64,000 nt of DNA, taken from NCBI GenBank assembly GCA_041666485.1, contig JBAYGW010000002.1, positions 7,711 to 71,710 of the forward strand. The letters are read 5' to 3'. How positions within the stretch are numbered: the stretch's first letter is position 1; the number at the start of each line of letters is the position of its first letter. Made by a program: the position numbers and the translations under genes. The stretch is from Patescibacteria group bacterium. GTDB taxonomy: Bacteria > Patescibacteriota > Patescibacteriia > UM-FILTER-42-10. The notes beneath the pieces are model-generated. The model ran no database searches. It was given only the letters and a program-made list of their open reading frames with translations, and had not been told where the DNA came from. Shown one piece after another: positions 26,957 through 49,222 of this stretch.

Positions 26957-28351
26957 CTAAAATCTTAATTGCTTATTTAGATCCCCTACCGCTTCAAATT
27001 CTTCATCCGTCAGATATGAACGGCCGTCTATTTTCCTGCTGGTAATCACTTCCTGCACCGACTTCCCTTTGTTCATGCCTTCGTTACCTATATCAAGATA
27101 AATCTGGTAGATTTCCGATTTTTTCCACGCCTGAATCGCTTCCGATTTCTTGGTAAATGACTCCTCCTCCAACAAATCAACCTTCTCTTTTATCTTTTCT
27201 ATTGCCTGACGGGGGTTACCTCCTAGCCTCCTGAAATCAACCAGATTTAAACTCCTTATTTCTTCAATCGGTCCCATCAATCTTGGCGGTGTTTTAATAT
27301 CTACAATCTTCGGTCGGGAATCAAATTCCGGCATCGGCCGCTGTATCTTCGGCAAAATCGGAATTCTTCTTTCTACAACAGGGGTAACCGGGATAGCCGG
27401 CTGACTGGCTTTCGTCTTTATTTCATTTTCCAGTTCATTCTTATTTTGCTGATGCAAATTGAGCACTGCTTTTTTTATTTGCTCATTGGCTACCGCTTTT
27501 CTCATCCTCTCCTGCTGCTCTTTTTCTTTCTCCGCTTCCTGCATTTTCATCCTTTGCCGCATCTCTATCTTCTTAATCTCCCCCTCATCATGAAAACTCA
27601 TTGCTTTTTCCGCTGTTATCTTCACTATCTGTTCAACAACTTCGGGAGCAAGTTCCAAGCCACCGACTTTTTTTGAACGAACCAGCAATTCTCTCAGCTG
27701 AACGGATGTCCGAATATCACGTAGACGTGATGTGATAAGACTTTCAAATCTTTTTTGCATGAGCTCATCGGAAAAACTGACTCCAACCTGACCTGCAATT
27801 TCTTTAACAACCGCACCGTAATCAATCGCTCTGGTTACTGACGATATTTCTTTGTTATGTAATCTTTTTACCTCCTCCTCATCCTCAACATCAAAATAGA
27901 AACTGGCGTTTACACCTTTACCGGGAATCATCCTACTCGCCAGTCCTGGCTTCAATTGGGAAGCTGTAATCTGCTGGACGCCCTCTTGCTTTTCAGATGC
28001 GGGTGTAACCATTTCTTTGCTTACCGGTTCTTGCTTGGGAACTGTCTGGATAACGGGTGCGGTCGGGACGGGAGTATTTGGTGTTTTCTTTACTGACAAT
28101 TGTGCAACCGCCTTCTGGATGACGGAGGGATTTATCGCAGTCGGTTTCGGTACACGAGCAACATTTACCGGAGCAACAACCGTATTTTCTTCGCCTAATA
28201 ATTTAGCGCCATTAACATAACTGAACTGACCTTTTTGGTCCTTAATCAATATTTTAGCGCCTTTTAAAATTTCTTTTTCCTCGTTATCTTTTTTGCCACT
28301 TGCGACATTTACGGATATTGAGGGGTTACTTTTGTTTTTTTGATCCTCCAT
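26957..28351 (-). CDS. Hypothetical protein (464 aa) with a Lys/Glu-rich coiled-coil region.
   Basis: Complete ORF. It overlaps the upstream gene by 26 nt, which suggests translational coupling. No motif I recognise. Confidence 0.45.
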   Translation of the reverse strand: MEDQKNKSNPSISVNVASGKKDNEEKEILKGAKILIKDQKGQFSYVNGAKLLGEENTVVAPVNVARVPKPTAINPSVIQKAVAQLSVKKTPNTPVPTAPVIQTVPKQEPVSKEMVTPASEKQEGVQQITASQLKPGLASRMIPGKGVNASFYFDVEDEEEVKRLHNKEISSVTRAIDYGAVVKEIAGQVGVSFSDELMQKRFESLITSRLRDIRTSVQLRELLVRSKKVGGLELAPEVVEQIVKITAEKAMSFHDEGEIKKIEMRQRMKMQEAEKEKEQQERMRKAVANEQIKKAVLNLHQQNKNELENEIKTKASQPAIPVTPVVERRIPILPKIQRPMPEFDSRPKIVDIKTPPRLMGPIEEIRSLNLVDFRRLGGNPRQAIEKIKEKVDLLEEESFTKKSEAIQAWKKSEIYQIYLDIGNEGMNKGKSVQEVITSRKIDGRSYLTDEEFEAVGDLNKQLRF

Positions 28352-29300
28352 TATATTTCAGTGTTGTTATTGGTCTTGACTGCGTAATGTATATTTTATT
28401 TTTTTCCAGCGCCCACTCTATGTCCTGCGGATGCCGATAATGTTTTTCAATTTTCTCGCAGATTCCGGCTAATTGGATTATTTGTTTGCCCGTGAGTTTC
28501 TGCTTCTCCTGCATTATCTTTGGAACCTTCACTTTTTTTACTCCGCTGGTTCCGGCCTGAACAATCATTTCTTTTTGCTCGGAAATATTGATATCCAGGA
28601 TTGTTTTTTCCTTTTTATCAATAATGTACGTATCCGGCGTAATCTGCCCGGAAACGATCGCCTCCCCCTGGCCGTATCCCGCTTCAATCACCATTTGATC
28701 CCGGTCGTTTGTCACCGGATGAGCCGTAAAGGCAACTCCGGATATTTCAGAATTCACCATGCTCTGCACCACTACACCCACACTGACTTTGGTTTTGTGC
28801 AGTTTCTTTTCAAAACGGTAAAAAATAGCGCGCGGAGTGAATAGTGATGACCAGCATTTACGGACTGCTTCGGCTAGATTCTTCCTGGTAATGAACAAAT
28901 ATGTCTCTAACTCGCCCGCCCATGACGCGACAGAGGAATCTTCAGCTGTTGCAGAAGAACGGACAGCAACATATTTGGTTTTCAATTTATCAAAAGCCGC
29001 CAATATCTCTTTTTGTATATCCTCCGGAATTATGAAATCGTGGATTAAGTCCCGAATTGTGTTGGAAACACGGTCCACACTGTTTATATCATTCAACTTT
29101 ACTTTCTTTAACAGTGCGTCTATCTCCACATCCAGATCTGTTTCCTCTAAAAAACGCTCAAAAGTGCCGGAAAGTACTACAAACCCGGGTGGGACCGGCA
29201 TTTTTACCATTGTCATCTCCCCCAGTTGCGCGCCCTTTCCCCCAGCTTCTGCAACACTCTTTCTATTTAATTGCGAAAAAGTTTTGGTAAATTTTGCCAT
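28326..29300 (-). CDS. Stand-alone PPDK_N-type ATP-grasp (nucleotide-binding) domain protein, homologous to the N-terminal domain of PEP synthase, pyruvate-phosphate dikinase and rifampin phosphotransferase (324 aa).
   Basis: VAEAGGKGAQLGEM...GFVVLSGTFERF, VAVRSSATAEDSSVASWAGELETYL, and DIEWALEKNKIYITQSRPITT match PPDK_N motifs throughout. It has no phosphohistidine or PEP-binding domain. Confidence 0.8.
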   Translation of the reverse strand: MAKFTKTFSQLNRKSVAEAGGKGAQLGEMTMVKMPVPPGFVVLSGTFERFLEETDLDVEIDALLKKVKLNDINSVDRVSNTIRDLIHDFIIPEDIQKEILAAFDKLKTKYVAVRSSATAEDSSVASWAGELETYLFITRKNLAEAVRKCWSSLFTPRAIFYRFEKKLHKTKVSVGVVVQSMVNSEISGVAFTAHPVTNDRDQMVIEAGYGQGEAIVSGQITPDTYIIDKKEKTILDINISEQKEMIVQAGTSGVKKVKVPKIMQEKQKLTGKQIIQLAGICEKIEKHYRHPQDIEWALEKNKIYITQSRPITTLKYNGGSKKQK

Positions 29301-29383
29301 GAAAAATCTTTTATATTATAGCATAACTGATAATAATTCACAACATTACATACAGGCACAATCGCGCTTGCTTTGGCCATTGA

Positions 29384-29411
29384 CCCCGTTAGAGCAAATG
29401 CTCTAACGGGG
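29384..29411. other. Perfect hairpin with a 13-bp stem immediately upstream of the cassette promoter.
   Basis: CCCCGTTAGAGCA-aat-GCTCTAACGGGG. No flanking T-tract. Confidence 0.5.
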
Positions 29412-29440
29412 TTGACAAATTTGTAAAAAAGGTATATAAT
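29412..29440 (+). promoter_or_regulatory. Perfect consensus sigma70 promoter (TTGACA-N17-TATAAT) driving high-GC cassette 1.
   Basis: TTGACA at 29412-29417, exactly 17 nt of spacer, then TATAAT at 29435-29440. It is followed by a ~170-nt leader containing the hairpin GAGGA-gtaa-TCCTC (29531-29544), the palindrome CCACGTG-AA-CACGTGG (29560-29575), and the SD AAGGAG (29598-29603) placed 6 nt before the ATG. Confidence 0.6.
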
Positions 29441-29609
29441 CCCCGGTTAAAAGTACGCCGTTTTGCTTGATGATGTTTCCTTAAACAAATCGGCGTGCTT
29501 TTGCACATAGTTGCCCATTCAAAAACGATTGAGGAGTAATCCTCATAACAATACCTTCACCACGTGAACACGTGGCGAAACAGGAGTCCCCCCAGCCAAG
29601 GAGTTTGTG

Positions 29610-30272
29610 ATGGTACTAGTACAAGTTTCGCAGATCCTGGCCAGGATCCCCGATGGCACCACTCGCATCTCCCTGCTCGGCCGGCATTCGCTGTCCGTGC
29701 AGGACGGGCCGAACGAGACCCGCACGCTCAGCGCAGATGGTATTCAGCTCTGCAACGAGGTGAGTGGGTTCTACACCCAGCTCGTCCATGAGTTGGAGGT
29801 GCTCACTTCCTCCTCTGAGGCCGCGTTCTACTGCTCTGACATGGCACGCTCGTTCGCGACCATCCAGGAGATTTTCCATCCGGACAGCATCTACCAGGAC
29901 GACCGGCTCAACCTGCTGGCCAGCTTGAAGAAGATCGATGGCGGCGCCTGGTTCAAGGAACAGAAGGATGCCGGGTGTTCCGAGAGGGAGATCATCTCCA
30001 ACTTCATTGTCCTGACTGATCCCAGCGTCGGCGCCGACCAGCCGTTCGAGCTGAACGCGCGGAATTACCTGCACTGGGCCGCCGAACCGAGCGGACCCCG
30101 TCTGCGGGTCGCCTTCGCGCACGAGGTGGCCTGCACCATGGCCGCCTACCCTTACTTCTTCTTCGGGGAGCAGTGGCCCGGCCTCAAGGAGTGCGAGTCG
30201 TACATGTTCTGCATGAACGACTGGGGTCACATCCTGCGCATGATCAAGGTCACCCCTCCGGCTACCCAGTAG
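29610..30272 (+). CDS. Compositionally foreign (high-GC) ORF of unknown function, 220 aa, in cassette 1.
   Basis: The ATG at 29610 is preceded by a consensus SD. Codons are strongly GC3-biased and the ORF is about 60% GC against a host background of about 38%. I see no recognisable catalytic motif. Confidence 0.6.
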   Translation: MVLVQVSQILARIPDGTTRISLLGRHSLSVQDGPNETRTLSADGIQLCNEVSGFYTQLVHELEVLTSSSEAAFYCSDMARSFATIQEIFHPDSIYQDDRLNLLASLKKIDGGAWFKEQKDAGCSEREIISNFIVLTDPSVGADQPFELNARNYLHWAAEPSGPRLRVAFAHEVACTMAAYPYFFFGEQWPGLKECESYMFCMNDWGHILRMIKVTPPATQ

Positions 30273-30289
30273 CCAACCGTACCTTCTCA

Positions 30290-30362
30290 GTCGAGCACAA
30301 ACTCGACCCACCGTTCCCGAAAGGTTCCCATTCACTCTCATGAATGTTCGGAGCCTTTTTTC
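30290..30362 (+). terminator. Terminator-like region after cassette 1.
   Basis: Hairpin GTCGAG-cacaaa-CTCGAC (30290-30307), then GGAGCC followed by TTTTTTC (30351-30362). Confidence 0.3.
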
Positions 30363-30473
30363 TTTGCCGAAAATAATATTATCGCCGGCGGGGCGCAATT
30401 ATTTCCGCAACTTTAACTTGAATTTTCACAATAAAAAGGCTACTATTAATGACTGACCATTAACCATGAATAT

Positions 30474-31376
30474 ATGAGAGAATCAACACTAGCCCCTACA
30501 ACTCTTGACGGAATTGTTGAACAAGGAAAGGAAAAAGAAAGAGAATTGCCAAAAATGACCGTATTTTTATTGCGTCATGGAGAAAGTAATAATGACAAAA
30601 CAAATCCCAACCGAGGACTTACCGAGAGAGGTATGGAGCAGGTAACAGAAAGTATCAACCAGATATTGAATAGTTTATTGTTAGAAAGCAATCCGGAATT
30701 TGAAGAATGGGATAATGAAGAATCAAGAATAACCGCCGTTCAAAATGCCATCCAAAATATAGAATTCCAGCTGAAAGATTCCGGCACCACTAGAACATTG
30801 GAACAAGTTTGGCTGGAATATGAAATACTGGAACAATACGGCGTGCCGGCAGAACACATTTATCTGCCACAAAGCGCATTTGAATACAAAGATAAAGAAC
30901 CGAATGAAAAAGCGGGCCCCGGCATAGCTAAAAGGCTCAAAGGAGTACGGGGGCTGGATCAGAATCCGGAATATAGGACTAAAATCAAATCAAAGGAGTA
31001 CCAAGAACGTGTTGGTGCAACCGGAGACATGATGGCCTGGGCCGTCTCCCCCGATGAAGATGTTCCGGATAACGTAGAAAAAAGAAGTCATATGGAAGAA
31101 CGCTACGCATCTGATATTGCAAAACTTGATAGAGTAGTCGCCCATAAAATGGAAGACTATCCGAAACGGGTGGTAGCGATTGCCAACGCCCATGCATCCA
31201 TCGCCACAATTGCCGCCGCCAAAGAATCCGGAATTCCACTGGAAAAACTTATGGGAAAAATTGGGGAAGTGCCGGAAGCCCAGGGCTTGCGCTATGATTT
31301 TTATGAAGGCGACACGGAACATACAGCTAAACCTTTTGGCCCTGAGATGGAACAGGCTGTGGCGGAATTAAAATAA
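30474..31376 (+). CDS. Histidine phosphatase superfamily protein (phosphoglycerate-mutase or SixA-like).
   Basis: MTVFLLRHGESNNDKTNPNRGLTERG contains the RHGE catalytic motif. The true start may be the internal ATG at about 30555. Confidence 0.65.
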   Translation: MRESTLAPTTLDGIVEQGKEKERELPKMTVFLLRHGESNNDKTNPNRGLTERGMEQVTESINQILNSLLLESNPEFEEWDNEESRITAVQNAIQNIEFQLKDSGTTRTLEQVWLEYEILEQYGVPAEHIYLPQSAFEYKDKEPNEKAGPGIAKRLKGVRGLDQNPEYRTKIKSKEYQERVGATGDMMAWAVSPDEDVPDNVEKRSHMEERYASDIAKLDRVVAHKMEDYPKRVVAIANAHASIATIAAAKESGIPLEKLMGKIGEVPEAQGLRYDFYEGDTEHTAKPFGPEMEQAVAELK

Positions 31377-31385
31377 TAGAGACCT

Positions 31386-31448
31386 TAAAAAAACCGTCCC
31401 CCACTTCCGCCTCCGCCGATTGGCGAATGGCAGATGGGACGGTTTTTT
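31386..31448. terminator. Bidirectional rho-independent terminator between convergent genes.
   Basis: AAAAAAACCGTCCC...GGGACGGTTTTTT: an A-tract, a GC-rich stem and a T-tract, located between the gene ending at 31376 (+) and the gene ending at 31457 (-). Confidence 0.6.
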
Positions 31449-31456
31449 GATTTACA

Positions 31457-32965
31457 TTATTTAATCTTCAGTATTCCGGTATTACCATCCACTTCCACAA
31501 CCTGTCCGTCTTTGAGAATTTTGGTAGTCATACGCAGACCGATTATTCCCGGGATACCTGCCTCCCGAGCCAGAGTTGCCGGGTGAGAGGTAATTCCCGG
31601 CCCTCCATCACAGATCAGTGCCGAAGCTATAGAGAGCACCTGAGTAAACACCGGCGTAGCCTGCAGAGTACATATAATATCTCCCTTTTTCACTTTATGA
31701 AATGAATCCGGATTAATTACGATCTTCACCGGCCCTTTGGTAACACCCGGTGAAACAGCCATTCCTACTAACTCTTTTACGTTCTTGTCTACTTCCACAA
31801 ATTTTTTATAATAATGCTTCGCTTTTTCCCCTGTATACAGGCTCGTTCTGCCATTTTCCATAATAAACGCACACAGCTTTATTCTTTCATTAAGGGCGTT
31901 ACTCATATTTAAACCTTTGGTAAGCATCGGTCTGACTTCTGCTGTCCTCAAATGACGCGTCTGGCGCATAGAAAGCCCGCCACGCCGGGCTATTTCCATT
32001 AAGATCGGGTCATAATAATAAAGGGTTTGTGAGACGATACTTTTTCTTAATTCTTTGTAATAGATTCCTTCGCGCATAGTTTGAAATAAGCGCTGATGTT
32101 TTTTATCAATCTTTAATTTATCTTGAATCTCATTAATTTTTGTGCCAATCCTTTCCTCTTCTTTTAGCATCTTTTCTAATGCATTTTTCGGATTCCCCTT
32201 TAGATGCTTTTTGAAACGAATAATAAAATCTTCGTATGTTAATATCGGATCATCATAATCTCTAGTGATCCAAAAGAATTTTTTTTCATGATTCTTTATC
32301 AATCTCAACAGCTCCTTATCTTTTTGAATTAAGTTAATAGTATTTATTACGTTTCCTTTAAAATAATCCGCCCATTTTTTCCGCTTATTGATAATTTTAC
32401 ATATTTTTAAAGCGGCTAAAGTTTCCTGCCTGCTTACCATTGCTTTTGTTTCAGTAATAAGAGCATCTACATAATGCGCGGCTTTTTTGGAATCTGCTTC
32501 TTTGGTGGCAATATACTCTTGCAAATATTTGAACAAATAGTTTTCTATAGCTAGAATCGGAAAATAATGGGAATACACCTGTTTATAGCGCCTCTCGTAT
32601 TCCTCGTGCAATCCCGCCAGTCTACTATTACTTAGCAATCCAAGTTTCTTTAGACTGTTATTCTCCTTTAGAAATGCATAAAAGCTCTTGGCAAAAGCCC
32701 TCTGTATTTTACCAAGTTTAATAAACATATCCGGCTGTTGGAATGCTTTTTCCAATACATTCATCCCCACCCGTTCATGATCAGCCTTATCAAAATACAA
32801 ATACATATGGTTCTCTTCAAACATTTGTACTATTCTTTTATAGGTAACCCCGACCACATCCTTCAGTTCCTTTCCTATTGATTCCATAGAAAGGTAGTTT
32901 GGGAAAGGACTCATCCGTTGCCTTTGGGATATTTGAAACCATACGATTTTTTTATTTTTGATCAT
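31457..32965 (-). CDS. PEP-utilizing-enzyme phosphohistidine (swivel) domain protein, rifampin-phosphotransferase or PEP-synthase-like but lacking an ATP-grasp domain. Paralog 1 of 6 (502 aa).
   Basis: The C-terminus GDIICTLQATPVFTQVLSIASALICDGGPGITSHPATLAREAGIPGIIGL is the PEP-utilizers mobile-domain motif with its catalytic His. The N-terminal ~400 aa is a domain I cannot assign. Confidence 0.7.
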   Translation of the reverse strand: MIKNKKIVWFQISQRQRMSPFPNYLSMESIGKELKDVVGVTYKRIVQMFEENHMYLYFDKADHERVGMNVLEKAFQQPDMFIKLGKIQRAFAKSFYAFLKENNSLKKLGLLSNSRLAGLHEEYERRYKQVYSHYFPILAIENYLFKYLQEYIATKEADSKKAAHYVDALITETKAMVSRQETLAALKICKIINKRKKWADYFKGNVINTINLIQKDKELLRLIKNHEKKFFWITRDYDDPILTYEDFIIRFKKHLKGNPKNALEKMLKEEERIGTKINEIQDKLKIDKKHQRLFQTMREGIYYKELRKSIVSQTLYYYDPILMEIARRGGLSMRQTRHLRTAEVRPMLTKGLNMSNALNERIKLCAFIMENGRTSLYTGEKAKHYYKKFVEVDKNVKELVGMAVSPGVTKGPVKIVINPDSFHKVKKGDIICTLQATPVFTQVLSIASALICDGGPGITSHPATLAREAGIPGIIGLRMTTKILKDGQVVEVDGNTGILKIK

Positions 32966-33563
32966 GATCCAAATATATGTTTAGTTCTTTATTAAATTGA
33001 CTGAAACTTTTCACTAAGACAGTCTTCATCCCCAGCGCTTTCGCATCCACAAGGTTTGATTCCTGATCATCCGCATACACAATTTCCCTTGGAGTTACAT
33101 TGAAACGCTTCATAACCACCCGCAGCGTTTTTTTACTCGCCTTCGGCAGATTAAGCTCCCAGGTATTGATAATATTCTTGAATTCATTTCTGAGGCGGAA
33201 TTTTTTGACAATCGCATCAACAAATTGGGAACGCGTATTTTTGGTAAGAAGTAGCGTCACATACCCCCTCCTGTTTAAATCCCTATTTACTACCAGCACC
33301 CGGTTATCAATTTTCATGAGTTTGTAATGCACATCCCTTAACTGTTGCCAGGTTATCGGCAGATTAAAATATTCTACCGTTTTTTGCCACGCTTCTTTCT
33401 GTGATATCTTCCGGATTGCCGCCAGATTAAAATATTCTGAATACATTTTCTGCTGATATGTCTTCCAGTTACCGCCATAACGTTTTGCCAGTTCCTTAGA
33501 AGTATTCGGATATCCGGCATTCAGAATTAACCCATAGCAGTCAAATATTATTAGTTTAACCAT
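32952..33563 (-). CDS. HAD-superfamily hydrolase (haloacid-dehalogenase-like, with a DxYG-type motif I).
   Basis: N-terminus IIFDCYGLIL (compare FDxYGTL) and C-terminus IVYADDQESNLVDAKALGMKTVLV (motif IV). It overlaps the downstream dikinase-like gene by 14 nt. Confidence 0.5.
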   Translation of the reverse strand: MVKLIIFDCYGLILNAGYPNTSKELAKRYGGNWKTYQQKMYSEYFNLAAIRKISQKEAWQKTVEYFNLPITWQQLRDVHYKLMKIDNRVLVVNRDLNRRGYVTLLLTKNTRSQFVDAIVKKFRLRNEFKNIINTWELNLPKASKKTLRVVMKRFNVTPREIVYADDQESNLVDAKALGMKTVLVKSFSQFNKELNIYLDHDQK

Positions 33564-33703
33564 ATATTGATCAATTATTTATTTGTTTACTCACATATCT
33601 TATATAATATCATGTTTGGTATACTTTGGTTATTATGCAGTTTCTATTCTACTTGATTTTTTTGCCCAGATGTGTTACAATAAGCATATTAACCCTCTCA
33701 AAC

Positions 33704-34036
33704 ATGAATGTAGAAATAATCCGTAATGTAATACTGGCAATCGGTTGGCCAGTTTTATTTGTTTTCAGCATTTATATATTTAAAGTTGGAAAACGGGCAT
33801 ATTCCGCAGTCAATGGTTCTTTGGTCGGGAAAATTATTAAAGTACTCGTTTATTCAATGTTAGTTGAGATGTACAGCCTGGGCATCGTCAGTACAGTATA
33901 TCTTTTGAATAACGCTAATGGCATATATATTGTGCTGCCTATATTTATTGTCTGGGGGTTTGTTTTCGTCTGGAGCATCAATACGATTAAAAAATCAAGT
34001 GATTTAGCCAATAACATTACATTACAAAATAATTAA
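33704..34036 (+). CDS. Small polytopic membrane protein, tandem paralog A.
   Basis: MNVEIIRNVILAIGWPVLFVFSIYIF...LVGKIIKVLVYSMLVEMYSLGIVSTVY aligns with the next ORF. I moved the start to the internal ATG (33704) to match that paralog. Confidence 0.55.
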   Translation: MNVEIIRNVILAIGWPVLFVFSIYIFKVGKRAYSAVNGSLVGKIIKVLVYSMLVEMYSLGIVSTVYLLNNANGIYIVLPIFIVWGFVFVWSINTIKKSSDLANNITLQNN

Positions 34037-34048
34037 CTAATTAAATTT

Positions 34049-34375
34049 ATGTCGCTAGAACTTATGAGAAATACAATTTTGTTTATTGGGTGGCCGGTTT
34101 TGATTGCCGGTTCGGTCTATATTTTCATAAAAGGCCGAAATGTCTATCAATTAGTTAAGGGGTCATTGGTCGGTAAAATTACTAAGGTATTGGTTTACAC
34201 CATGTTGGTTGAAATGTATTCTCTAGGGATCGTCAGCACCGCTTATATGTTTGAAAATGCCAAAGGAGTTTACTGGGTACTGCCGGTATTTGCCGTGTGG
34301 TTCATTACCTTTGTTTGGTCTCTAAAAACACTCAAATCCGCAGGTGAAGAAGCCAAAAAAATTACCCAGGGATAA
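34049..34375 (+). CDS. Small polytopic membrane protein, tandem paralog B.
   Basis: MSLELMRNTILFIGWPVLIAGSVYIF...LVGKITKVLVYTMLVEMYSLGIVSTAY. About 60% identical to paralog A. Confidence 0.6.
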   Translation: MSLELMRNTILFIGWPVLIAGSVYIFIKGRNVYQLVKGSLVGKITKVLVYTMLVEMYSLGIVSTAYMFENAKGVYWVLPVFAVWFITFVWSLKTLKSAGEEAKKITQG

Positions 34376-34396
34376 AAAATCATTAACTATAAAACA

Positions 34397-34666
34397 ATGG
34401 CAAACGGAGAAGAATACAAAAATATAATGAGCGAGATGATTAAAAAGCAAATAGTCATCCTAGGGCCGGATATCGCGATTATGAAGGCAAAAAATGTCAC
34501 AGAACTGGCGATCAACCCAGATGGAGAGGTAACAGAGATTAACGGTGAACCGCAGGTGGCACTACAAAGATTAATTGATGAATATGTCGCCTTATCGGGT
34601 TTGATTGTCAAAAAAACCATGGAACCTTTGCTGGCAAAATATCCATCGGTTAAAGTAGATCAGTAA
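34397..34666 (+). CDS. Hypothetical small protein (89 aa).
   Basis: Complete ORF positioned between the membrane-protein paralogs and the histidine kinase. No motif I recognise. Confidence 0.4.
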   Translation: MANGEEYKNIMSEMIKKQIVILGPDIAIMKAKNVTELAINPDGEVTEINGEPQVALQRLIDEYVALSGLIVKKTMEPLLAKYPSVKVDQ

Positions 34667-34687
34667 AAGAATAAATAGATCCAGACA

Positions 34688-36436
34688 ATGGATAATTGGA
34701 ATCTTACAGTTGTTTTAATTTTTTCAGTTGCTATTACCGGGATAGTGATCAGTTTTTGCGTATATATTAGAAAATTGAAAGGAACGTTAAAAGCAGAAGG
34801 TGAAAAAAGAGAATCAGAAAATAACCGGCGCATGTATGAACTGTCCATTCTTAAAGAAATAGGAGAAAGAGCCGGTTATTCTTTAAATACCCAGAGAATT
34901 GCTGATATTATCACCGGATCATTAAAAGAACTGATTGATTACTCTACGACTTCCTATATTCTGGAAGATTCCCAAAAAAAAGAATTGCTTTTCAAGTGCG
35001 AAGTTGAAGAAAGTGTCAGCCCTAAATTTGTGGAAGATGTAAAAAGCAGGATGGTCGCGGCGCTGTCAATTTTGACAGACCAGAACTATCAGGAACGAAA
35101 GATTGAAGAAGTCGTCGCGGGGACTATTTTGGATGATGAAAACAATGAGCCTTTAAGCTCATTTTTCAATATTCCGCTGACAGTCGGCGATAAAGTCGTC
35201 GGCATTTTGAACGTATCCAGCACCAAGACCGGCCTGTACAAGGAAGATGAAATGACTATTCTGTATAAAATAACCGCGCAGGCATCCAATGCTGTTACCC
35301 GCCTGCAGGATGTACTGGATTCCGAACAGAGCAAACTCAATGCTATGGTAGTCAGCATGGCTGACGGAGTATTGATGATTGACATGGAAAACAGGGTCTA
35401 TGTGATTAATCCTAAAGTAAAAGAGCTTTTGGGGATTGAGAGTGAGGAAATTTCCATTTTTGATATTATTGAGGCATTTGAAGGCAAGGTGGATTTCAGA
35501 ACTAAGCTTGAAGAATGCGTTAAATTGAACCGCCAGGAAATTGTAGAAGAAACTTATCTTCAGCACCGTTATATTAGAATTTTGTTTTCGCCGGTAAAAG
35601 ATAAAAATGACGATACTTTGGGAGCAGTAATTATTTTACACGATATTACACACGATAAAGAACTGGAAAAAGTAAAAGAAGATTTTACCAGCATGATGGT
35701 ACATGATCTGCGATCTCCTCTGAATGGTATCCGGCTGATCGCTGAAATGTTGCAGGATAAGAAAATGCCCAAGGACCAGTTTTTGCAATCAGCTAAAATG
35801 ATTCACGAAAGCACTACGAATATTTTAGAGCTGGTAAATGATTTATTGGATGTCGCTAAATTAGAAGCCGGTAAATTCATTGTGGCCAAAGAAAAGGGCG
35901 ACCTGCAAGCGGTAATTGCCAGCAGGATTAATTTCTTTCAGGCTCTGGCGAATGAAAAAAATATAAAACTTGATTCATATTGGGAGCCCGACATTGAACA
36001 AATACCGTTTGATGAAAAAGAGATAGTTCAAGTGCTGAATAACTTACTGTCCAATGCAATCAAATTCACCGATAAAGATGGTAAGGTAACTGTGCAAACA
36101 CTACTTTTAAGAAAAGATGAGGACGTTAAAAATAAGGCCGATTCCAATAAGATAAAATGGTTTATTTCCAATACATCCCCCGCTCTGATGAAACGTAGTA
36201 GTGACCTGTTAATTTGTGCTGTAACTGATAATGGGAACGGTATTGCACAAGAAAAAATTAAGAGTTTGTTTAATAAATTTCAACAGGCGGAAAACGGTAA
36301 AAAGTCAGAAATTAAAGGAACGGGGCTGGGTTTGGTAATCGCCAAGGGGATAATTGAAGCACATGGCGGCGCGGTTGGTGTTGAGTCTGTGATTGGCAAG
36401 GGCAGCACATTTTATTTTACATTACCATTAGAATAA
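34688..36436 (+). CDS. Sensor histidine kinase (TM, GAF/PAS-like sensor, HisKA and HATPase_c domains).
   Basis: N-terminal TM segment. H-box MVHDLRSPLNGI, N-box LLSNAIKFT, and G-boxes TDNGNGIAQE and GTGLGLVIAKGIIEAHGG. Confidence 0.85.
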   Translation: MDNWNLTVVLIFSVAITGIVISFCVYIRKLKGTLKAEGEKRESENNRRMYELSILKEIGERAGYSLNTQRIADIITGSLKELIDYSTTSYILEDSQKKELLFKCEVEESVSPKFVEDVKSRMVAALSILTDQNYQERKIEEVVAGTILDDENNEPLSSFFNIPLTVGDKVVGILNVSSTKTGLYKEDEMTILYKITAQASNAVTRLQDVLDSEQSKLNAMVVSMADGVLMIDMENRVYVINPKVKELLGIESEEISIFDIIEAFEGKVDFRTKLEECVKLNRQEIVEETYLQHRYIRILFSPVKDKNDDTLGAVIILHDITHDKELEKVKEDFTSMMVHDLRSPLNGIRLIAEMLQDKKMPKDQFLQSAKMIHESTTNILELVNDLLDVAKLEAGKFIVAKEKGDLQAVIASRINFFQALANEKNIKLDSYWEPDIEQIPFDEKEIVQVLNNLLSNAIKFTDKDGKVTVQTLLLRKDEDVKNKADSNKIKWFISNTSPALMKRSSDLLICAVTDNGNGIAQEKIKSLFNKFQQAENGKKSEIKGTGLGLVIAKGIIEAHGGAVGVESVIGKGSTFYFTLPLE

Positions 36437-36451
36437 TTAAATAATACGAAC

Positions 36452-36820
36452 ATGGCAAAAAAAATATTAGTCATCGACGACGATGATGCGATACAACAAG
36501 TGATAAAATCAGCCCTCGTTTCTGAAGGCTATGAAGTAAGAATTGCCGATGACGGCAAAGAAGGTTTAAAAGTAGTAAAAGAATTCCAACCGGACTTGAT
36601 AATACTGGATATTATAATGCCGGTAATGGATGGTTTGGGATTTCTAAAAGAAAATAAAAATAGATCAATTCCTGTTATTATCCTAACCTCCCTGGGTAAG
36701 GATGATAATGAGCAGAAATTTATTGATCTGGGGGCCAGACACTTTCTACAGAAGAGCATTGTACATGTTGACGATATTAAACAAAAAATTTCTGATGTAT
36801 TAAAAGAAGAGAGTAAATAA
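36452..36820 (+). CDS. Single-domain response regulator (CheY-like receiver).
   Basis: KILVIDDDDAIQQVIKSAL...DLIILDIIMPVMDG...ILTS...K contains the receiver-domain acidic pocket and the conserved Lys. Confidence 0.85.
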   Translation: MAKKILVIDDDDAIQQVIKSALVSEGYEVRIADDGKEGLKVVKEFQPDLIILDIIMPVMDGLGFLKENKNRSIPVIILTSLGKDDNEQKFIDLGARHFLQKSIVHVDDIKQKISDVLKEESK

Positions 36821-36868: not shown

Positions 36869-38383
36869 TTAGATCTTTTTTACAATCCCCTTCGTCGCGT
36901 CCACTTCCACCAGATCGCCGTCTTTGAATACTTTGGTGGCAATTCCTGTGCCGATAATACAGGGTATTTTGAGTTCTCTGGAAACAATGGCTGCGTGGCA
37001 AGTAATGCCGCCCGTATTAGTGACAATAGCCACTGCTTTGTTCATTGCCGGCACCAATGATGGGTTGGTGGAATAGCTAATCAAAATATCTCCTTCATTG
37101 AATTTGTTTAAATCACTTGTAGAATTGATTATTTTCACCATGCCCTTGGCTTTGCCCGGATAAGCCACTTGACCACTGATAATATTATTATGCTTAATCT
37201 TAATAGTAGGTTTGGTTTGGACAAATAATTTCTTAAATTTTTTAGCTTTAGCACCAGTATAAAAACCGACTTTACCATTTACTAAAATATGAGCCGAACA
37301 TTGATACCGTTCATTTAATTGATCACTGGTAAAGGCTTTTTTATCGTTTATCAGGATATCCTGATACTCAGCCCTGGTGACATAACGGGCCTGCAGTGGA
37401 GACCAATAAAAACGACCAGCAATTTCTTGATACCATCTACCCATAGCATAATTATGGTAGTAAACCTGAACCTCTTTCCGAATTTCTTTTAAATAAGCTA
37501 ATTCCCGGACAATCTCAATTTGGTACAATTCTTCTTTATTAAAAAATAATTTTGCTTTGTTGTGAAATTTTTTAAGTTCAGCTAATTTATTTTGTTTAAT
37601 CCTTATCTCTCTATCAGGAAATATCCCCCATCGCCTTTTGACTAAATCAAAATAATATTCTGGCCCAGCGGCTGGACCTACAAAATAATACTGTAGCCAA
37701 CCAAATTTATCAGCCAGTTTTTTAAAACTACTTTGAGCGCCAGCTGATAATTCCTTAAGACTTTTACAATTTTTAAATTGTTTTAATAGAGTTTTATTTT
37801 TCTTTATCCTACTGATCAATTTTAAAACCGCCATATTTTCTTCACTGATAGCTGTCGGCTTAATAGAAGTAACTAAATTACTAAAAACAATTTCCGGGTT
37901 ACCTAATTTTTTTAGCTTGGGTTCTAGTTCTTGATATAAATTTACCGAGAATTTAACTCTGCTCATATCCAGTGTTTGTACTACTAGACCCCATTTCCAA
38001 CATTCAGCAAAAACATCATACAAATTACAATAAATCTTAAATAGCTGACTATTTGTTTTTATTTTCAAATTGTCTACCAATAAACGCCGACATAATATTT
38101 TCATCATTTTAAAAGCATCATAGTGGCCGTGACAAAGCTGTTGAAAAAATTCTTTATCTCTAATTAGCTTCTGACCAAAGTAATCCCCGGCTTTTATAAA
38201 CTGCAATTCTACGGGCCCCCAAACCACAAAATCTTTTTCAAAAACAAATAAGCTGTCCAATTTTAGCTTGTTGGCAGATAATTTTGGCAAATCTACTTTA
38301 AAATTTTTTTCATTTAAAACACACCAAGGAGTCAAAGCCACATTATAATCTTCAACTAATATGATAAACTGTCTTTTTGGCAT
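36869..38383 (-). CDS. Phosphohistidine swivel-domain (PEP-utilizers) protein, paralog 2 (504 aa).
   Basis: C-terminus GQVAYPGKAKGMVKIINSTSDLNKFNEGDILISYSTNPSLVPAMNKAVAIVTNTGGITCHAAIVSRELKIPCIIGTG. Confidence 0.75.
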   Translation of the reverse strand: MPKRQFIILVEDYNVALTPWCVLNEKNFKVDLPKLSANKLKLDSLFVFEKDFVVWGPVELQFIKAGDYFGQKLIRDKEFFQQLCHGHYDAFKMMKILCRRLLVDNLKIKTNSQLFKIYCNLYDVFAECWKWGLVVQTLDMSRVKFSVNLYQELEPKLKKLGNPEIVFSNLVTSIKPTAISEENMAVLKLISRIKKNKTLLKQFKNCKSLKELSAGAQSSFKKLADKFGWLQYYFVGPAAGPEYYFDLVKRRWGIFPDREIRIKQNKLAELKKFHNKAKLFFNKEELYQIEIVRELAYLKEIRKEVQVYYHNYAMGRWYQEIAGRFYWSPLQARYVTRAEYQDILINDKKAFTSDQLNERYQCSAHILVNGKVGFYTGAKAKKFKKLFVQTKPTIKIKHNNIISGQVAYPGKAKGMVKIINSTSDLNKFNEGDILISYSTNPSLVPAMNKAVAIVTNTGGITCHAAIVSRELKIPCIIGTGIATKVFKDGDLVEVDATKGIVKKI

Positions 38384-38401
38384 ATTATTTGATGTCTTAT
38401 T

Positions 38402-39880
38402 CTACTCATTTAACTTTTTTACAACCCCCTTTATCGCGTCTACTTCCACTATGTCGCCGTCTTTTAATACTTTGGTAGCAATTCTGGTCCCAATGACACA
38501 GGGCGTTTTTAATTCTCTGGCGACAATAGCTGCGTGGCAAGTAATGCCGCCAGAATCAGTGATTATTGCACTGGCCTTTTGCATAGCAGGTACAACCTGA
38601 GGATTTGTAGAAGTGGAAACCAGAATGTCGCCTTTGTGCATTTTCTTCATATCCGCTAGCTCATCAACTCTCCTTACAATACCTTTCGCTTTACCTGGAT
38701 AAGCGGTACTGCCTTCAATTATCTTTATGTTGGGGTTAACAAACAGTGACTGTTTTATTTCCTGAGAAATTCTTTTGACTTTTTTCCCTGACATAACCTG
38801 ATAATTAGTCCCCTTAAAAAGAACTACTGATTCCTTGATTCTTTCGTTCATCAGATCGGCACTAATATTTTCTTTGAGCAGAGCTTGTTTTATTTCGTCG
38901 GGCGTAATCATAAAGGACTGCAACCGTGATAAATTATTTCTTCTTGCAACTTCATTAATGAAACCCTCCATTAATAAATGAGCTTTCTGGTTCAAAAACT
39001 TCCGCTCAAATTTCCAGAAGCCTAGCGTTTGTAAAGCATGAATGATTCTCAGCTCTCTTTTGTTCAATTTGAGTTCCTTCTCAACCGCCCTCTGTTTTGC
39101 TGCTAGAATCTTTCCGGTCTTACCCTTTTCATTCAGCAATTTGACTATTACCTCCATTTTCCTTGGCAGTGCACTCAACCGGCGCCGGATATCATGCGTT
39201 TGCCAAGCTGGCCCGTTATAACCATAACCGATCCAAGTATATTGTTTAAGATGACTAGCAATATCTTTCTTTGACAACTTCCGCTTCAACTGTTTAAGCC
39301 GTAACTTCAATAAGGCCACTTCCTCACGCGATGCCACTGTTTCTCTAGAAGAAGAAGATAATAGTTGAAAGTATTCTCCAATTTTATCATTATCCTTTCC
39401 TAATTTTATACCAATAATTTTTTCTACTTGGTTGCTCAAAAGAGGCGCCTCCATTTCAGCCGCAGTAGCCATTACACTATAAGTCATCATGGAAATAAAT
39501 TTTTTCAACCAATCCTGCCAACGCGTTATGAGCTCTTGACCGCTCAAAGTAGATAAATCACCTGAAAGCCTTTTAGCTGCTTCAAGCATTATTGGTATTT
39601 CTTCTTTATTTACTGACTCAATCTTTTTTAGCAAAATATCATTCTGTTCTAGACGCTTTAAAATTTTTCTTCCAGGAGCAATTAAGGATCCTTCTTTTAC
39701 CAGATAGCTAAACCAATGATTTTTATACCAACAACCAATTACACCATTTTCTATGCCCACTTTTTTTGCCGCATACTGCGCACACCACCAGTACAGCATG
39801 GTAGGGTAAAGATAAGCGTTCTTATCATGGGCTAGTTCAAGCCATCTTTTTTGATGTTGATTATTCATTCTAACTAACAA
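38402..39880 (-). CDS. Phosphohistidine swivel-domain (PEP-utilizers) protein, paralog 3 (492 aa).
   Basis: C-terminus GSTAYPGKAKGIVRRV...GDILVSTSTNPQVVPAMQKASAIITDSGGITCHAAIVARELKTPCVIGT. Confidence 0.75.
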   Translation of the reverse strand: MLVRMNNQHQKRWLELAHDKNAYLYPTMLYWWCAQYAAKKVGIENGVIGCWYKNHWFSYLVKEGSLIAPGRKILKRLEQNDILLKKIESVNKEEIPIMLEAAKRLSGDLSTLSGQELITRWQDWLKKFISMMTYSVMATAAEMEAPLLSNQVEKIIGIKLGKDNDKIGEYFQLLSSSSRETVASREEVALLKLRLKQLKRKLSKKDIASHLKQYTWIGYGYNGPAWQTHDIRRRLSALPRKMEVIVKLLNEKGKTGKILAAKQRAVEKELKLNKRELRIIHALQTLGFWKFERKFLNQKAHLLMEGFINEVARRNNLSRLQSFMITPDEIKQALLKENISADLMNERIKESVVLFKGTNYQVMSGKKVKRISQEIKQSLFVNPNIKIIEGSTAYPGKAKGIVRRVDELADMKKMHKGDILVSTSTNPQVVPAMQKASAIITDSGGITCHAAIVARELKTPCVIGTRIATKVLKDGDIVEVDAIKGVVKKLNE

Positions 39881-41348: not shown

Positions 41349-41402
41349 ATCTTTTCCCCATAAAGTGATGCACGGGGCGCTTCTATAAAAGAAATTATAT
41401 TA

Positions 41403-47918: not shown

Positions 47919-48596
47919 CTACATTTTATTACTTTTTATTTTTTCACAATCTCTTTTCCAATTCAAGAATTTCTTCCAAATTTTCTTATCCTTGTGCCAA
48001 TTATCCCGATCCGCCTCATAAGCTTGTTCTAATTCCCATACAACTTCACTGAAGAATCCTATCTTTCTAAAATAAAGGTCCCGGTCTTTTTTGTTAAAAA
48101 GCGCTTCAAATTTAATTTTACGCCTGCTAATCCACTCAGGATATTTTCCGCCAGTATCATCTAAAATAACAATAATTTTTTGAATGTTCAATTCCCCTCT
48201 GACATTTTCAATAAATATTTCCTTACTTGCTCCTGTAGCGATTACATCATCAACCAAAACTGCCCTGGCACCCTTGCTATATATTCCCTCTATTAATGAG
48301 TCTGTGGAATAACCCTTTGCTTTTTTTCTAATGTAAACCCAAGGGAGTTTTGTTTCCAACGCTATGGCAGCAGCCAGGCCAATCCCACCAGTTTCCCCTC
48401 CGGCAATTATTTCAATCTTTGGTTTGATTATTCTAATAATTTCGGCTAATTCTCGCGCTACCATTTTTAGAACAGCCGGATCAGATAGTGCCGCCTTAGG
48501 ATCCCAATAGATTGGAACAATCCGGTTCGCCTGGATCTTTACTCCGGGAGTATAAAAACGCTTCTGGGCTAATATTTTGAATACCTCATTTTTCAT
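47919..48596 (-). CDS. Type I phosphoribosyltransferase (OPRT-like) domain protein, paralog 1 of 5, with a W-rich C-terminal tail.
   Basis: PRPP-binding loop VLVDDVIATGAS. Tail NWHKDKKIWKKFLNWKR. Confidence 0.65.
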   Translation of the reverse strand: MKNEVFKILAQKRFYTPGVKIQANRIVPIYWDPKAALSDPAVLKMVARELAEIIRIIKPKIEIIAGGETGGIGLAAAIALETKLPWVYIRKKAKGYSTDSLIEGIYSKGARAVLVDDVIATGASKEIFIENVRGELNIQKIIVILDDTGGKYPEWISRRKIKFEALFNKKDRDLYFRKIGFFSEVVWELEQAYEADRDNWHKDKKIWKKFLNWKRDCEKIKSNKM

Positions 48597-49222
48597 TTTT
48601 TTACCCTTCCTCCCCAGTTAATTGGATCTTTAAGATATTGTCTAATCGCTAAAGTATCCTCAACATTAAAAATGCCGTGCTCAATACCAAAGTTGGCAAT
48701 CTCTTGAAAAGTAACCAGATAGTGAATCTTTATCCTATTAGCTTTCTCTATTTTCTTTACCAGTTCCTTTTTGACTATAGAAATTACTAAAACATCTTTT
48801 ATTTTTGCCTTGTTTTTTCTTAACACTTTGACAGCATAATTAATATTGCTCCCGGTCACCACCATATCATCAATCAACACCACTTTCTGACGAGGATTAA
48901 TGATTCCTTCAATTTGTTTTTTAGTACCATTCCTCTTCGGCTTTTTTCTTACATAAACCATTGGTTTGGCAAGTGCCTGAGCAAGAATACCAGCAAATGC
49001 AATACCCGCTGATTCATTTCCCGCAATTATATCATAATAACTTGGCAATAATTTTTTTAGTTGGTTAAAAACCGCTGATAATTCTTTTGGGTAAGATAAT
49101 AAATTTCTATGATCAAGATAAATAGGTTGATATAGCCCCGCTCCACCCAATAGCGGCTTCTTGGAATTACAATAAACATTCTGTGCCTTGTATAATGCTT
49201 TAATAATTTTTAGCTTGTTCAT
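48593..49222 (-). CDS. Type I phosphoribosyltransferase-domain protein, paralog 2.
   Basis: VVLIDDMVVTGSNI. It overlaps paralog 1 by 4 nt, and the upstream gene by 4 nt. Confidence 0.65.
   Translation of the reverse strand: MNKLKIIKALYKAQNVYCNSKKPLLGGAGLYQPIYLDHRNLLSYPKELSAVFNQLKKLLPSYYDIIAGNESAGIAFAGILAQALAKPMVYVRKKPKRNGTKKQIEGIINPRQKVVLIDDMVVTGSNINYAVKVLRKNKAKIKDVLVISIVKKELVKKIEKANRIKIHYLVTFQEIANFGIEHGIFNVEDTLAIRQYLKDPINWGGRVKK

Follow-up and report, generated by a model that had tools for sequence, protein, structure and literature searches.

In a reduced Patescibacteria genome, a dikinase split between one stand-alone ATP-grasp subunit and six swivel-domain subunits is encoded together with hydrolase genes that adjoin a single one of those subunits, here called SW1, and this SW1-specific linkage is conserved in related genomes. 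Because a HAD-type gene and two genes of the histidine-phosphatase fold are conserved beside one dikinase subunit, the arrangement suggests a kinase/phosphatase pathway. With moderate confidence, we read the system as a split small-molecule dikinase in which SW1 has a dedicated, conserved set of HAD and histidine-phosphatase-fold proteins acting on its phosphorylated product.

The window is the whole stretch of DNA that was analysed, 64,000 nucleotides, and the features that concern us are these:

26957 to 28351, reverse strand: conserved 464-aa protein, function unassigned, whose gene overlaps the ATP-grasp gene by 26 nt.
28326 to 29300, reverse strand: stand-alone ATP-grasp (PPDK_N) subunit, 324 aa (PPDK_N E 9e-101).
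29412 to 29606, forward strand: consensus sigma-70 promoter and structured GCorf leader of ~165 nt (from sequence and conservation).
29610 to 30272, forward strand: GCorf, second histidine-phosphatase-fold gene, 220 aa (fold and RH...H catalytic set).
30474 to 31376, forward strand: gene A, divergent branch-1 histidine-phosphatase-superfamily protein, 300 aa (motifs, profile, hhalign, predicted fold).
31388 to 31448, no strand assigned: bidirectional intrinsic-terminator hairpin between A and SW1 (A-run, 13-bp stem with inner hairpin, T-run).
31457 to 32965, reverse strand: SW1, dikinase subunit, 502 aa, RPH-like substrate-binding region and phospho-His swivel domain (profiles, motif).
32952 to 33563, reverse strand: HAD-IA hydrolase, 203 aa (HAD_2, TIGR01509, motifs I-IV).
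36869 to 43028, reverse strand: four more swivel-subunit paralogs (36869-38383, 38402-39880, 39870-41348, 41403-43028; swivel domain profile).
49219 to 50931, reverse strand: sixth swivel paralog, with five phosphoribosyltransferase paralogs around it; a tRNA overlaps the start of its ORF as listed.

Both components of a two-component dikinase were found, namely a stand-alone ATP-grasp protein resembling that of RPH and subunits that join an RPH-like substrate-binding region to a swivel domain with the T/SxxGGxxxH motif. Residues 4-314 of the ATP-grasp subunit match the RPH ATP-grasp (4-316) end to end (E 2e-60), and the protein also matches the 387-aa stand-alone chain 9goj (E 1e-50). Its gene was found in most related loci, followed in several lineages by an orthologue of the 464-aa protein. 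Positions 156-509 of the swivel-paralog profile match RPH 499-865, reaching beyond the swivel domain (E 9e-23), while PEP synthase and PPDK match that profile in the swivel domain only. The PEP-utilizers swivel domain is recognised in every paralog (E 1.5e-14 in SW1, down to 2.9e-26), and the T-x-H motif with its histidine is invariant over them, although the four paralogs at 36869-43028 are only 23-26% identical to SW1. The SW1 motif reads GGPGITSH461, with T459 and H461 invariant in orthologues. NCBIfam RPH-family models align with SW1 from residue 265 on, with scores all far under cut-off (58 vs 999 bits). On these sequence grounds the setting fits a split RPH/HpeHI-type small-molecule dikinase in which one ATP-grasp protein is presumed to be the ATP-binding partner of all six swivel paralogs.

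Two-component dikinases of this kind, HpeHI, CreHI and the phenylphosphate synthase PpsAB, act in pathways with a later dephosphorylation step (PMC12167813). They likewise have a separate ATP-grasp subunit of ~35-40 kDa and a second subunit in which an RPH-like substrate-binding region is joined to a C-terminal swivel carrying T/S-x-x-G-G-x-x-x-H, and a later step of the Hpe pathway takes the phosphate off again, as proposed here. The present system differs from them in pairing six or more deeply divergent swivel paralogs with a single ATP-grasp gene, in the length of these subunits (~500 aa, compared with ~640 aa in HpeH), in its host, a reduced Patescibacteria genome rather than an aromatic degrader, and in the conserved HAD and histidine-phosphatase-fold partners of one paralog. 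RPH (PDB 5FBS, 5HV1) contains the same three modules as a single 867-aa fusion, whereas here they are split and the first ~150 residues of the paralogs are unaligned to its RIF-binding domain. A literature search on dikinases in CPR/Patescibacteria returned nothing relevant. The sequence-only reading had envisaged a regulated phosphorelay acting on small molecules or nucleotides; phosphoryl transfer to small molecules agrees with the RPH/HpeHI-like architecture (PMC12167813), and the regulated relay is a hypothesis.

A functional connection between the hydrolase genes and the swivel system is well supported because the linkage recurs in other genomes. That reading had made its case depend on such recurrence, and the recurrence is strong: of the 24 independent SW1 lineages (clustered at 90%) whose downstream sequence extends for 1.2 kb or more, 20 have A or GCorf no further than 3.5 kb from the 3' end of SW1 and four lack both, and the subset of loci found via SW1 alone, read from the same table, gives 14 of 18. 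What A and GCorf are linked to is the SW1 orthogroup in particular, not swivel clusters generally. Of 35 places, 34 have the SW1 orthologue as the swivel gene nearest to A or GCorf, in loci with up to eight swivel ORFs, and four swivel clusters without an SW1 orthologue (L049-L052) contained neither A nor GCorf. Genes of the A family adjoined PPDK_N and swivel genes in all six context look-ups and did so again in all genome loci with enough contig. In about half of the lineages the HAD gene immediately precedes the SW1 orthologue, many lineages lack it, and related clusters hold further candidate hydrolase families, namely a canonical His_Phos_1, a Metallophos and a faint MBL-fold match. All of these lineages belong to one Patescibacteria subgroup, and part of the synteny may reflect common ancestry instead of selection.

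Gene A, publicly annotated only as hypothetical protein WCT33_00715, is supported as a real but very divergent branch-1 member of the histidine phosphatase superfamily. Its LLRHGES motif underlay the original description of an RHGE-type histidine-phosphatase-family protein, a description now upheld by family profiles, hhalign and fold. A alone scores below the Pfam gathering threshold (His_Phos_1, PF00300, 12.7 bits against 21.7), but its membership follows from the matches of its family, from hhalign and from Foldseek. PF00300 is matched by 19 of the 22 family members at E <= 0.1 (best E 3.7e-6), four of six scanned distant relatives exceed the threshold (P0047, P0056, P0058, P0068), and in one distant member the match covers the C-terminal portion of the profile (positions 102-185). 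Comparison with short canonical His_Phos_1 proteins by hhalign gave a probability of 98.6% (E 1.2e-15), aligning the RHG of A with the canonical RHG and R107 with the arginine of S-x-T-x-R-T. R34-H35-G36, R107 and H240 do not vary in the 22-sequence alignment, and H240 lies in ANSHASI right behind strand 232-239, comparable to the canonical xxSHG. The AF2 model (pLDDT 87.9, pTM 0.84) agrees: the best 50 of 65 Foldseek PDB matches (E <= 0.001, down to 7e-7) are all histidine-phosphatase-superfamily proteins, and among the matches listed metabolite phosphatases and mutases prevail (GpgP, CobC, RosC, PSP, PGM). DSSP on this model assigns helix to residues ~122-230, between core strands, a stretch that contains an invariant GPG-x-x-K-R-L-x-G motif and that we read as a probable cap insertion. 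The family is tiny: a search of 1.84 billion representatives gave 47 matches, and 185,579 species yielded 12 loci.

GCorf shows the fold and the RH...H catalytic set of the same superfamily, with R26-H27 and H172-E173 invariant and RHS where the superfamily has RHG. A Pfam search found no domain in it, and no family was matched at sequence level; since BLASTP and hhalign comparisons with A were non-significant, GCorf was rejected as a detectable sequence paralog of A, and the two are related by fold and motif only. Small-molecule enzymes of branch 1 (PhoE, CobC, GpgP Rv2419c, RosC, dPGM) dominate the structural matches of both proteins and share the conserved Arg-His...Arg...His set, although identity is only 8-19% and the ~122-230 stretch of A has no described counterpart among them. 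The sequence-only reading had passed over GCorf, as it had the ATP-grasp core subunit, the specificity for a single swivel orthogroup and the missing Asp+2 of the HAD protein.

The HAD gene overlaps SW1 by exactly 14 nt, as previously noted, and the two are probably translationally coupled. Its assignment, unlike that of A, stands on its own scores: HAD_2 44.3 against a threshold of 23.8, Hydrolase 37.3 against 26.4 and TIGR01509 (HAD-IA-v3) 31.3 against 29.4 bits. Motifs II (TKNT), III (PKASKK) and IV (DDQ) are present, and D8, the T/S in LLTKNT, the K in PKASKK and DDQ are conserved. Motif I, however, reads D8-C-Y10-G, with Tyr in place of the Asp at nucleophile+2 that, within DxDx[TV], provides the general acid/base of HAD phosphatases; D-[CA]-Y-G recurs in eight of nine aligned orthologues, and the ninth (L018) has D-F-N-G. 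Because this general acid is lacking, the protein is not a canonical phosphatase, and while its HAD-IA membership is secure, its earlier inclusion among phosphoryl-removing enzymes is uncertain. It resembles subfamily IA members (L-2-haloacid dehalogenases, TIGR01428; YigB-type phosphatases, a COG label in IMG) in motifs I-IV and in the dehalogenase-type DxYG. The match to TIGR01428 is a weak full-length alignment (37.3 vs 125.4 bits, E 2.8e-9), all equivalog cut-offs were failed, and the gene context lends dehalogenase chemistry no support.

On its other side SW1 converges with A, which has its own transcription unit. The 80-nt gap, containing AAAAAAACCGTCCC...GGGACGGTTTTTT, folds into a GC-rich hairpin with an A-run on one side and a T-run on the other (dG -30.4 and -38.0 kcal/mol on the two strands, z -5.1 and -6.0, no shuffle equally stable), the form of a bidirectional intrinsic terminator between convergent genes and in agreement with the shared terminator proposed before. 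A simple terminator scan skipped it because of its long loop. Similar hairpins separate the orthologues at related loci, most clearly in seven of them (L001, L007, L010, L026, L030, L033, L035).

Taken as a small-molecule pathway, the system would most likely operate as follows. By homology, the ATP-grasp protein would bind ATP and phosphorylate the swivel histidine of each of the six ~500-aa subunits, each of which would have its own RPH-like substrate-binding region. SW1, presumably acting on a small molecule, would phosphorylate its substrate and would be served by an accessory set comprising the co-transcribed upstream HAD-IA protein and A and/or GCorf, which faces its 3' end across the bidirectional terminator. 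These hydrolases may strip or relocate phosphate on the SW1 product, or on a derivative of it, giving a transient-phosphorylation pathway akin to the kinase-then-dephosphorylation logic of Hpe. A small-molecule target is favoured by the cap-like stretch of A, by the metabolite enzymes that make up most of its listed fold matches and by the further candidate hydrolases of related clusters. Against hydrolysis of the product stand the absence beside SW1 of any further conserved pathway enzyme that would explain adding a phosphate and then removing it, the convergent and hence not co-transcribed position of A, the Asp+2-less HAD protein, and the four of 24 lineages without phosphatase genes.

A tentative alternative, which we think rather unlikely, is that A and/or GCorf are protein phosphatases acting on phospho-His461 or a regulatory Thr459 of SW1, so that they reset or regulate this branch in the manner of SixA. 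The restriction of the link to the SW1 orthogroup would agree with this, as would the atypical swivel loop of SW1 (GGPGITSHP, against GGITSHA in the other paralogs) and the conserved Thr before the catalytic His, whose counterpart in PEP synthase and PPDK undergoes regulatory phosphorylation (PMC12167813). The sole significant NCBIfam match of A is to the N-terminal motif of SixA (E 5e-4), and its best PDB sequence match, Alr0221 (3f2i), ranks among SixA-like structures. However, that match is confined to residues 28-65 and fails the SixA model (TIGR00249, 19.9 vs 74.5 bits); A, at 300 aa with an apparent helical cap, is about twice the size of the uncapped SixA (~155 aa; PDB 1UJC), its listed structural neighbours are mostly small-molecule enzymes, and GCorf departs from SixA too, with RHS, 220 aa and no family sequence match. 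The high rank of SixA comes partly from its minimal fold core, RosC and PhoE scoring alike. SixA-like action of A, raised at the outset, seems less likely than action on small molecules, and two histidine-phosphatase-fold genes plus a HAD gene would look redundant for a simple reset. No swivel or ATP-grasp fusion turned up among the distant A relatives scanned, the long P0058 and P0068 having only His_Phos_1.

It is conceivable, if improbable, that SW1, the Asp+2-less HAD protein and the two histidine-phosphatase-fold proteins form a protein-level phosphoryl circuit, with His-to-Asp transfer and/or phospho-His removal, that gates or drains a hub built around one ATP-grasp 'charger' for six or more substrate-specific subunits; the SixA-like gene of high GC content would be induced through its conserved attenuator-like leader. 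Such a circuit, if true, would give swivel-domain enzymes of minimal-genome bacteria a layer of regulation not described before.

We regard as quite unlikely the narrower proposal that the HAD protein is a phospho-acceptor or phosphotransferase taking phosphate from the SW1 histidine onto Asp8, with the histidine-phosphatase-fold proteins downstream. The coupling of the gene to SW1 and its frequent upstream position would suit such a role, as would retention of the nucleophile Asp with loss of Asp+2. In HAD enzymes that loss slows leaving-group protonation and aspartyl-phosphate hydrolysis, and P-type ATPases have Thr at this position. But DxYG is equally the motif of 2-haloacid dehalogenases, the TIGR01428 alignment hints at such ancestry, many SW1 lineages lack the gene, and we know of no precedent for transfer from a swivel His to a HAD Asp. 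There is similarly little to recommend the view that the hydrolases are unrelated housekeeping or salvage phosphatases that stand beside SW1 through inheritance of gene order and have no functional tie to it: the single subgroup could have kept an ancestral synteny, A has a separate transcription unit, and nucleotide and cofactor salvage genes lie near the clusters (PRTases, flavokinase, NUDIX, dUTPase, ThyA), but the adjacency outlasts inversions (co-directional in L008 and L034), insertions (L003, L005, L009), substitution of A by GCorf or the reverse (L026, L033) and divergence of SW1 to 34-40% identity while surrounding genes vary, and the A family occurs in SW1-type clusters wherever its context was read.

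If the small-molecule pathway reading is right, the two-component dikinase subfamily, recently defined, extends beyond aromatic catabolism. That a tiny Patescibacteria genome keeps six or more dikinase paralogs, one ATP-grasp gene and dedicated hydrolases implies an important unrecognised function, possibly in scavenging or detoxification. The SW1-HAD-His-phosphatase module offers a three- or four-protein system for reconstitution, and two 'hypothetical protein' families gain a fold and a context.

Other neighbours were rejected as parts of the module. The APH-like kinase had been counted in a local concentration of phosphoryl-transfer enzymes; its ORF (54332-55378) is genuine, with an MTR-kinase-like match to PF01636 (E 2.3e-7), but it stands at a distance of 21 kb and neither it nor the PRTases had homologs within +-10 kb in any related locus, a weak test for genes more than 14 kb away in the window. 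The histidine kinase and response regulator at 34688-36820 have counterparts in just two of the related loci, that of the closest relative and one unrelated to it. PADLOC matched none of eight cluster proteins to a defence system.

GCorf is also distinctive in composition and upstream sequence, with 61% GC and a GC3 of 0.84 inside a window of 42% GC. Rfam identified four tRNAs over the whole window (gathering threshold) and no RNA family near the gene, including in E-value mode on 29300-30480; the GC-rich island is better explained by a coding gene, whose product has a confidently predicted fold, than by an RNA gene. Recent transfer from a GC-rich donor does not account for the gene, which has only five homologs, all in Patescibacteria, and shows GC3 excess in every lineage. 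A fold of the whole transcript (z -5.7) was discounted as inflated through mixed composition, and the CDS alone gave z -3.25 from only 20 shuffles. The promoter (TTGACA-17-TATAAT, 29412-29440) precedes a leader that is more conserved than the CDS and whose first hairpin is attenuator-like. Why AT-rich reduced genomes should maintain so GC3-rich a gene behind a conserved leader is a question of composition and regulation in its own right.

All domains considered here fall in known superfamilies, and the split type of dikinase was published in 2025 (PMC12167813). New are the one-charger/many-subunits arrangement in Patescibacteria, a conserved module of a swivel-domain dikinase subunit (SW1), a HAD-IA gene and a histidine phosphatase, two unannotated histidine-phosphatase subfamilies, and an atypical HAD motif; a literature search combining dikinase terms with CPR found no paper joining them.

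The module lies in a window that looks like part of a Patescibacteria (CPR) genome, with ~42% GC and with genes for PrgI, a T4SS pilin and VirB4/TraG-like proteins; publicly deposited copies of the window's proteins are labelled 'MAG: Patescibacteria group bacterium' and have locus tags beginning WCT33_.

Features of the window around SW1
28326-29300, minus strand: stand-alone PPDK_N ATP-grasp protein (E 9e-101)
29412-29440: GCorf promoter
29610-30272, plus strand: GCorf, 220 aa, predicted second histidine-phosphatase-fold gene
near 30318-30362: GCorf terminator
30474-31376, plus strand: A, 300 aa, with LLRHGES
31457-32965, minus strand: SW1, 502 aa, C-terminal PEP-utilizers swivel domain (E 1.5e-14)
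32952-33563, minus strand: HAD gene, 203 aa, 3' end sharing exactly 14 nt with the start of SW1
32952-36820: block of HAD gene, two membrane proteins, histidine kinase and response regulator
36869-38383, 38402-39880, 39870-41348, 41403-43028 and 49219-50931: the other swivel paralogs, making six of ~500-570 aa with SW1

An earlier sequence-only reading had described A, SW1 and the HAD gene, the convergence of the first two on a shared terminator hairpin, and the 14-nt overlap; all were confirmed from sequence and folding. The 80-nt gap between A and SW1 contains AAAAAAACCGTCCC...GGGACGGTTTTTT and has a folding energy of -30.4 kcal/mol (z -5.1) on one strand and -38.0 kcal/mol (z -6.0) on the other, a stability that none of the shuffled sequences reaches; a consensus terminator scan misses this hairpin because its loop is long and internally paired. 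A-run/stem/T-run hairpins also separate orthologous pairs elsewhere, most clearly at the related loci L001, L007, L010, L026, L030, L033 and L035. From their overlap, the HAD gene and SW1 are probably translationally coupled. GCorf and A are separate transcription units, GCorf having its own promoter and terminator.

The assignment of A to the histidine phosphatases, originally made from its RHGE motif, has a good case at the level of the family, although A alone stays under the model cut-offs (His_Phos_1 12.7 bits against 21.7; SixA 19.9 against 74.5), both alignments covering the N-terminal motif only. Across 22 homologs (47-88% identity, every one from Patescibacteria-type MAGs) R34-H35-G36, R107 and H240 are invariant, the last lying in ANSHASI, immediately after a beta strand. 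PF00300 is matched by 19 of the 22 (best E 3.7e-6), and when six more distant relatives were scanned, four exceeded the Pfam threshold, with matches over the C-terminal half of the model among them. By hhalign, the family matches canonical His_Phos_1 proteins of ~180 aa that have in common the signature RHGE-x-x-KDK-x-NP-x-R-x-LT (probability 98.6%, E 1.2e-15). Searching with the AF2 model of A (pLDDT 87.9, pTM 0.84) returned only histidine-phosphatase-superfamily structures among the 50 PDB matches listed; the neighbours among these matches are mostly small-molecule phosphatases and mutases. In the model, DSSP assigns strands at 96-100 and 232-239 with helices in between, which may be read as a cap insertion, and an invariant GPG-x-x-K-R-L-x-G motif lies inside this stretch. 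The family is very small: a search of 1.84 billion representative proteins gave 47 matches (E <= 1e-3), and one of 185,579 species, each represented by one genome, gave 12 loci.

The identification of A as SixA was rejected, as A is twice the size of SixA and has a helical stretch between core strands. The ~180-aa His_Phos_1 proteins with A's extended N-terminal signature (P0065-P0074) lack the cap-like stretch; they are probably a short sister group, with A derived from such a protein by insertion.

The swivel paralogs are deeply diverged, those other than SW1 being only 23-26% identical to it, and all six keep the motif G-G-x-T-[SC]-H. A profile of five paralogs aligns to residues 499-865 of RPH (E 9e-23), which comprise part of the rifampin-binding domain and the swivel domain; for PEP synthase, PPDK and enzyme I, the match to this profile is confined to the swivel domain. 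In the two-component dikinases HpeHI, CreHI and PpsAB the swivel His belongs to a substrate-binding subunit and receives its phosphoryl group from the ATP-grasp subunit; the charged substrate-binding subunit then phosphorylates a small molecule. The Hpe pathway takes this phosphate off at a later stage (PMC12167813). The window has the same domain split in its ATP-grasp and swivel subunits, but here a reduced genome combines a single ATP-grasp gene with many deeply diverged substrate subunits. A 464-aa Lys/Glu-rich protein (26957-28351, minus strand) overlaps the ATP-grasp gene by 26 nt, has orthologues after PPDK_N in L001, L010, L011, L015, L017, L019, L020, L026 and L039, and may belong to the dikinase system as a third component. 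The sixth swivel paralog (49219-50931) stands amid five phosphoribosyltransferase (PF00156) paralogs (47919-53218), a further PRTase-domain protein lying at 12750-13532; its true start is probably more downstream because a tRNA (50884-50957, minus strand) overlaps the listed one.

According to the model that we favour, the ATP-grasp protein would charge His461 of SW1, and charged SW1 would phosphorylate a small molecule. That the hydrolases then attack this phosphorylated product, or a derivative of it, has in our view an even chance of being correct, and is preferred because of A's apparent cap and metabolite-enzyme structural neighbours, because related clusters hold other candidate hydrolases (canonical His_Phos_1, Metallophos and a faint MBL-fold match), and because of the Hpe precedent. 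Several related clusters are flanked by cofactor and nucleotide salvage genes, namely an EamA-flavokinase fusion, NUDIX, NAPRTase_C and dTMP kinase/DHFR/ThyA/dUTPase/dCMP deaminase (L003 3846-5123, L005 318-1589, L007 5429-7147, L003 1-3572, L001 20286-20654), and the riboflavin-pathway histidine phosphatases RosC and HFP are among the fold matches; together these give only a hint of the substrate class.

The sequence-only reading named SixA as a member of A's superfamily, suggested a regulated phosphorelay acting on small molecules or nucleotides, and proposed an assay of phosphatase activity on the phospho-His swivel domain. A role as phosphatase of that phospho-His (or of phospho-Thr459) is rather doubtful and is viable mainly for GCorf, which that reading overlooked. 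GCorf has no match in Pfam, NCBIfam or PDB sequences. Its orthologues (L010 4783-5469 and 9145-9849, L033 11658-12329, L020 9100-9753, L016 9095-9775, L026 11575-12246) stand directly upstream of A in L010, L016 and L020 and replace A opposite SW1 in L026 and L033, which makes GCorf part of the SW1 module.

GCorf lies inside a sharp GC island (29550-30300; 59-63% against ~38% in the flanks), with a GC3 of 0.84 against 0.385 +- 0.043 for the 46 other window genes (z 10.7). The GC3 of its orthologues exceeds that of their neighbours in every lineage examined (0.75/0.77 against 0.38, 0.795 against 0.31, 0.57 against 0.35, 0.65 against 0.54, 0.30 against 0.18). A single old transfer was rejected as the source, since the excess persists at 34-63% amino-acid identity, and we know of no GC-rich donor. 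Its promoter is consensus and invariant (TTGACA-17-TATAAT); with the promoter, the ~165-nt leader occupies 29412-29606. This leader is 83% identical to both L010 copies (4590-4825, 8975-9210), the coding sequence being less conserved. Three hairpins are predicted in it (z -4.0), the first (29452-29503) followed by an attenuator-like UUUUG, and Rfam gave no match to it. The L020 leader has an analogous hairpin and U-run, and in distant orthologues the promoters are likewise consensus-like and the leaders measure roughly 50-240 nt. At L010 8613-9849 a fragment of the PPDK_N gene precedes the second GCorf copy, as if one segment with the 5' end of the ATP-grasp gene, the intergenic region and GCorf had been duplicated.

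The HAD-type hydrolase call agrees with the passing of the HAD_2, Hydrolase and TIGR01509 (HAD-IA variant-3) models, but the phosphoryl-removal role attached to it is unsafe, as is the IMG label 'FMN phosphatase YigB', because Asp+2, the general acid/base of HAD phosphatases and phosphomutases, is replaced by Tyr. Motif I reads D-[CA]-Y-G in the nine aligned orthologues, except for one D-F-N-G, with the nucleophile Asp retained and motifs II to IV intact. In established HAD enzymology DxYG is the 2-haloacid-dehalogenase signature, and the protein aligns weakly over its full length to TIGR01428, far under the cut-off. P-type ATPases have Thr at the Asp+2 position. His-to-Asp phosphoryl transfer onto this Asp+2-less HAD would be more novel and is improbable.

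The proposed linkage to swivel genes held in other genomes. For each of six A homologs (49-78% identity), the surrounding few kb include a stand-alone PPDK_N gene, one to eight swivel genes, or both, and each of these six clusters has a HAD gene; a genome scan gave 12 more A loci of the same kind. Metagenome contigs were also searched independently with an alignment of SW1 orthologues, and all 69 loci were annotated with profiles. At 90% identity there are 27 SW1 clusters, 24 with at least 1.2 kb downstream; in 20 of these 24 an A- or GCorf-family gene is found no more than 3.5 kb from the 3' end of SW1, mostly in convergent orientation and with gaps of 3-120 nt (14 of 18 for loci found via SW1 alone, by our reading of the same table). 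Loci have up to eight swivel ORFs, yet in 34 of 35 places the one closest to an A or GCorf gene is the SW1 orthologue; among the annotated loci, swivel clusters without that orthologue (L049-L052) have neither. The adjacency holds down to 34-40% SW1 identity and survives inversions (L008, L034), inserted genes (L003, L005, L009) and the substitution of GCorf for A (L026, L033). Purely inherited synteny is an unlikely explanation.

In about half of the lineages the HAD gene immediately precedes the SW1 orthologue. It is missing between SW1 and the neighbouring paralog SW2 in L010, the closest relative (88% A identity), and therefore the order of block 32952-36820 differs even among near relatives. 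The APH-like kinase that had been counted in the cluster is unsupported rather than refuted: neither it nor the PRTases have homologs at any related locus within the limited +-10 kb flanks searched.

In the window, the stretch 33626-36820 stands between HAD-SW1 and the remaining swivel paralogs; it encodes two tandem paralogous small membrane proteins (33626-34036 and 34049-34375), a response regulator and a GAF-PAS histidine kinase. The L010 membrane-protein pair (5444-6310) adjoins a GCorf copy instead, which indicates recent rearrangement. In L003 (15394-17380) and L005 (11157-12438) the HAD gene, in L003 a tandem double HAD of 409 aa, lies away from SW1, ahead of another swivel paralog and convergent with a canonical 201-216-aa His_Phos_1 gene; thus the arrangement of a histidine phosphatase opposite a HAD-swivel operon is seen again, with different members of the family.
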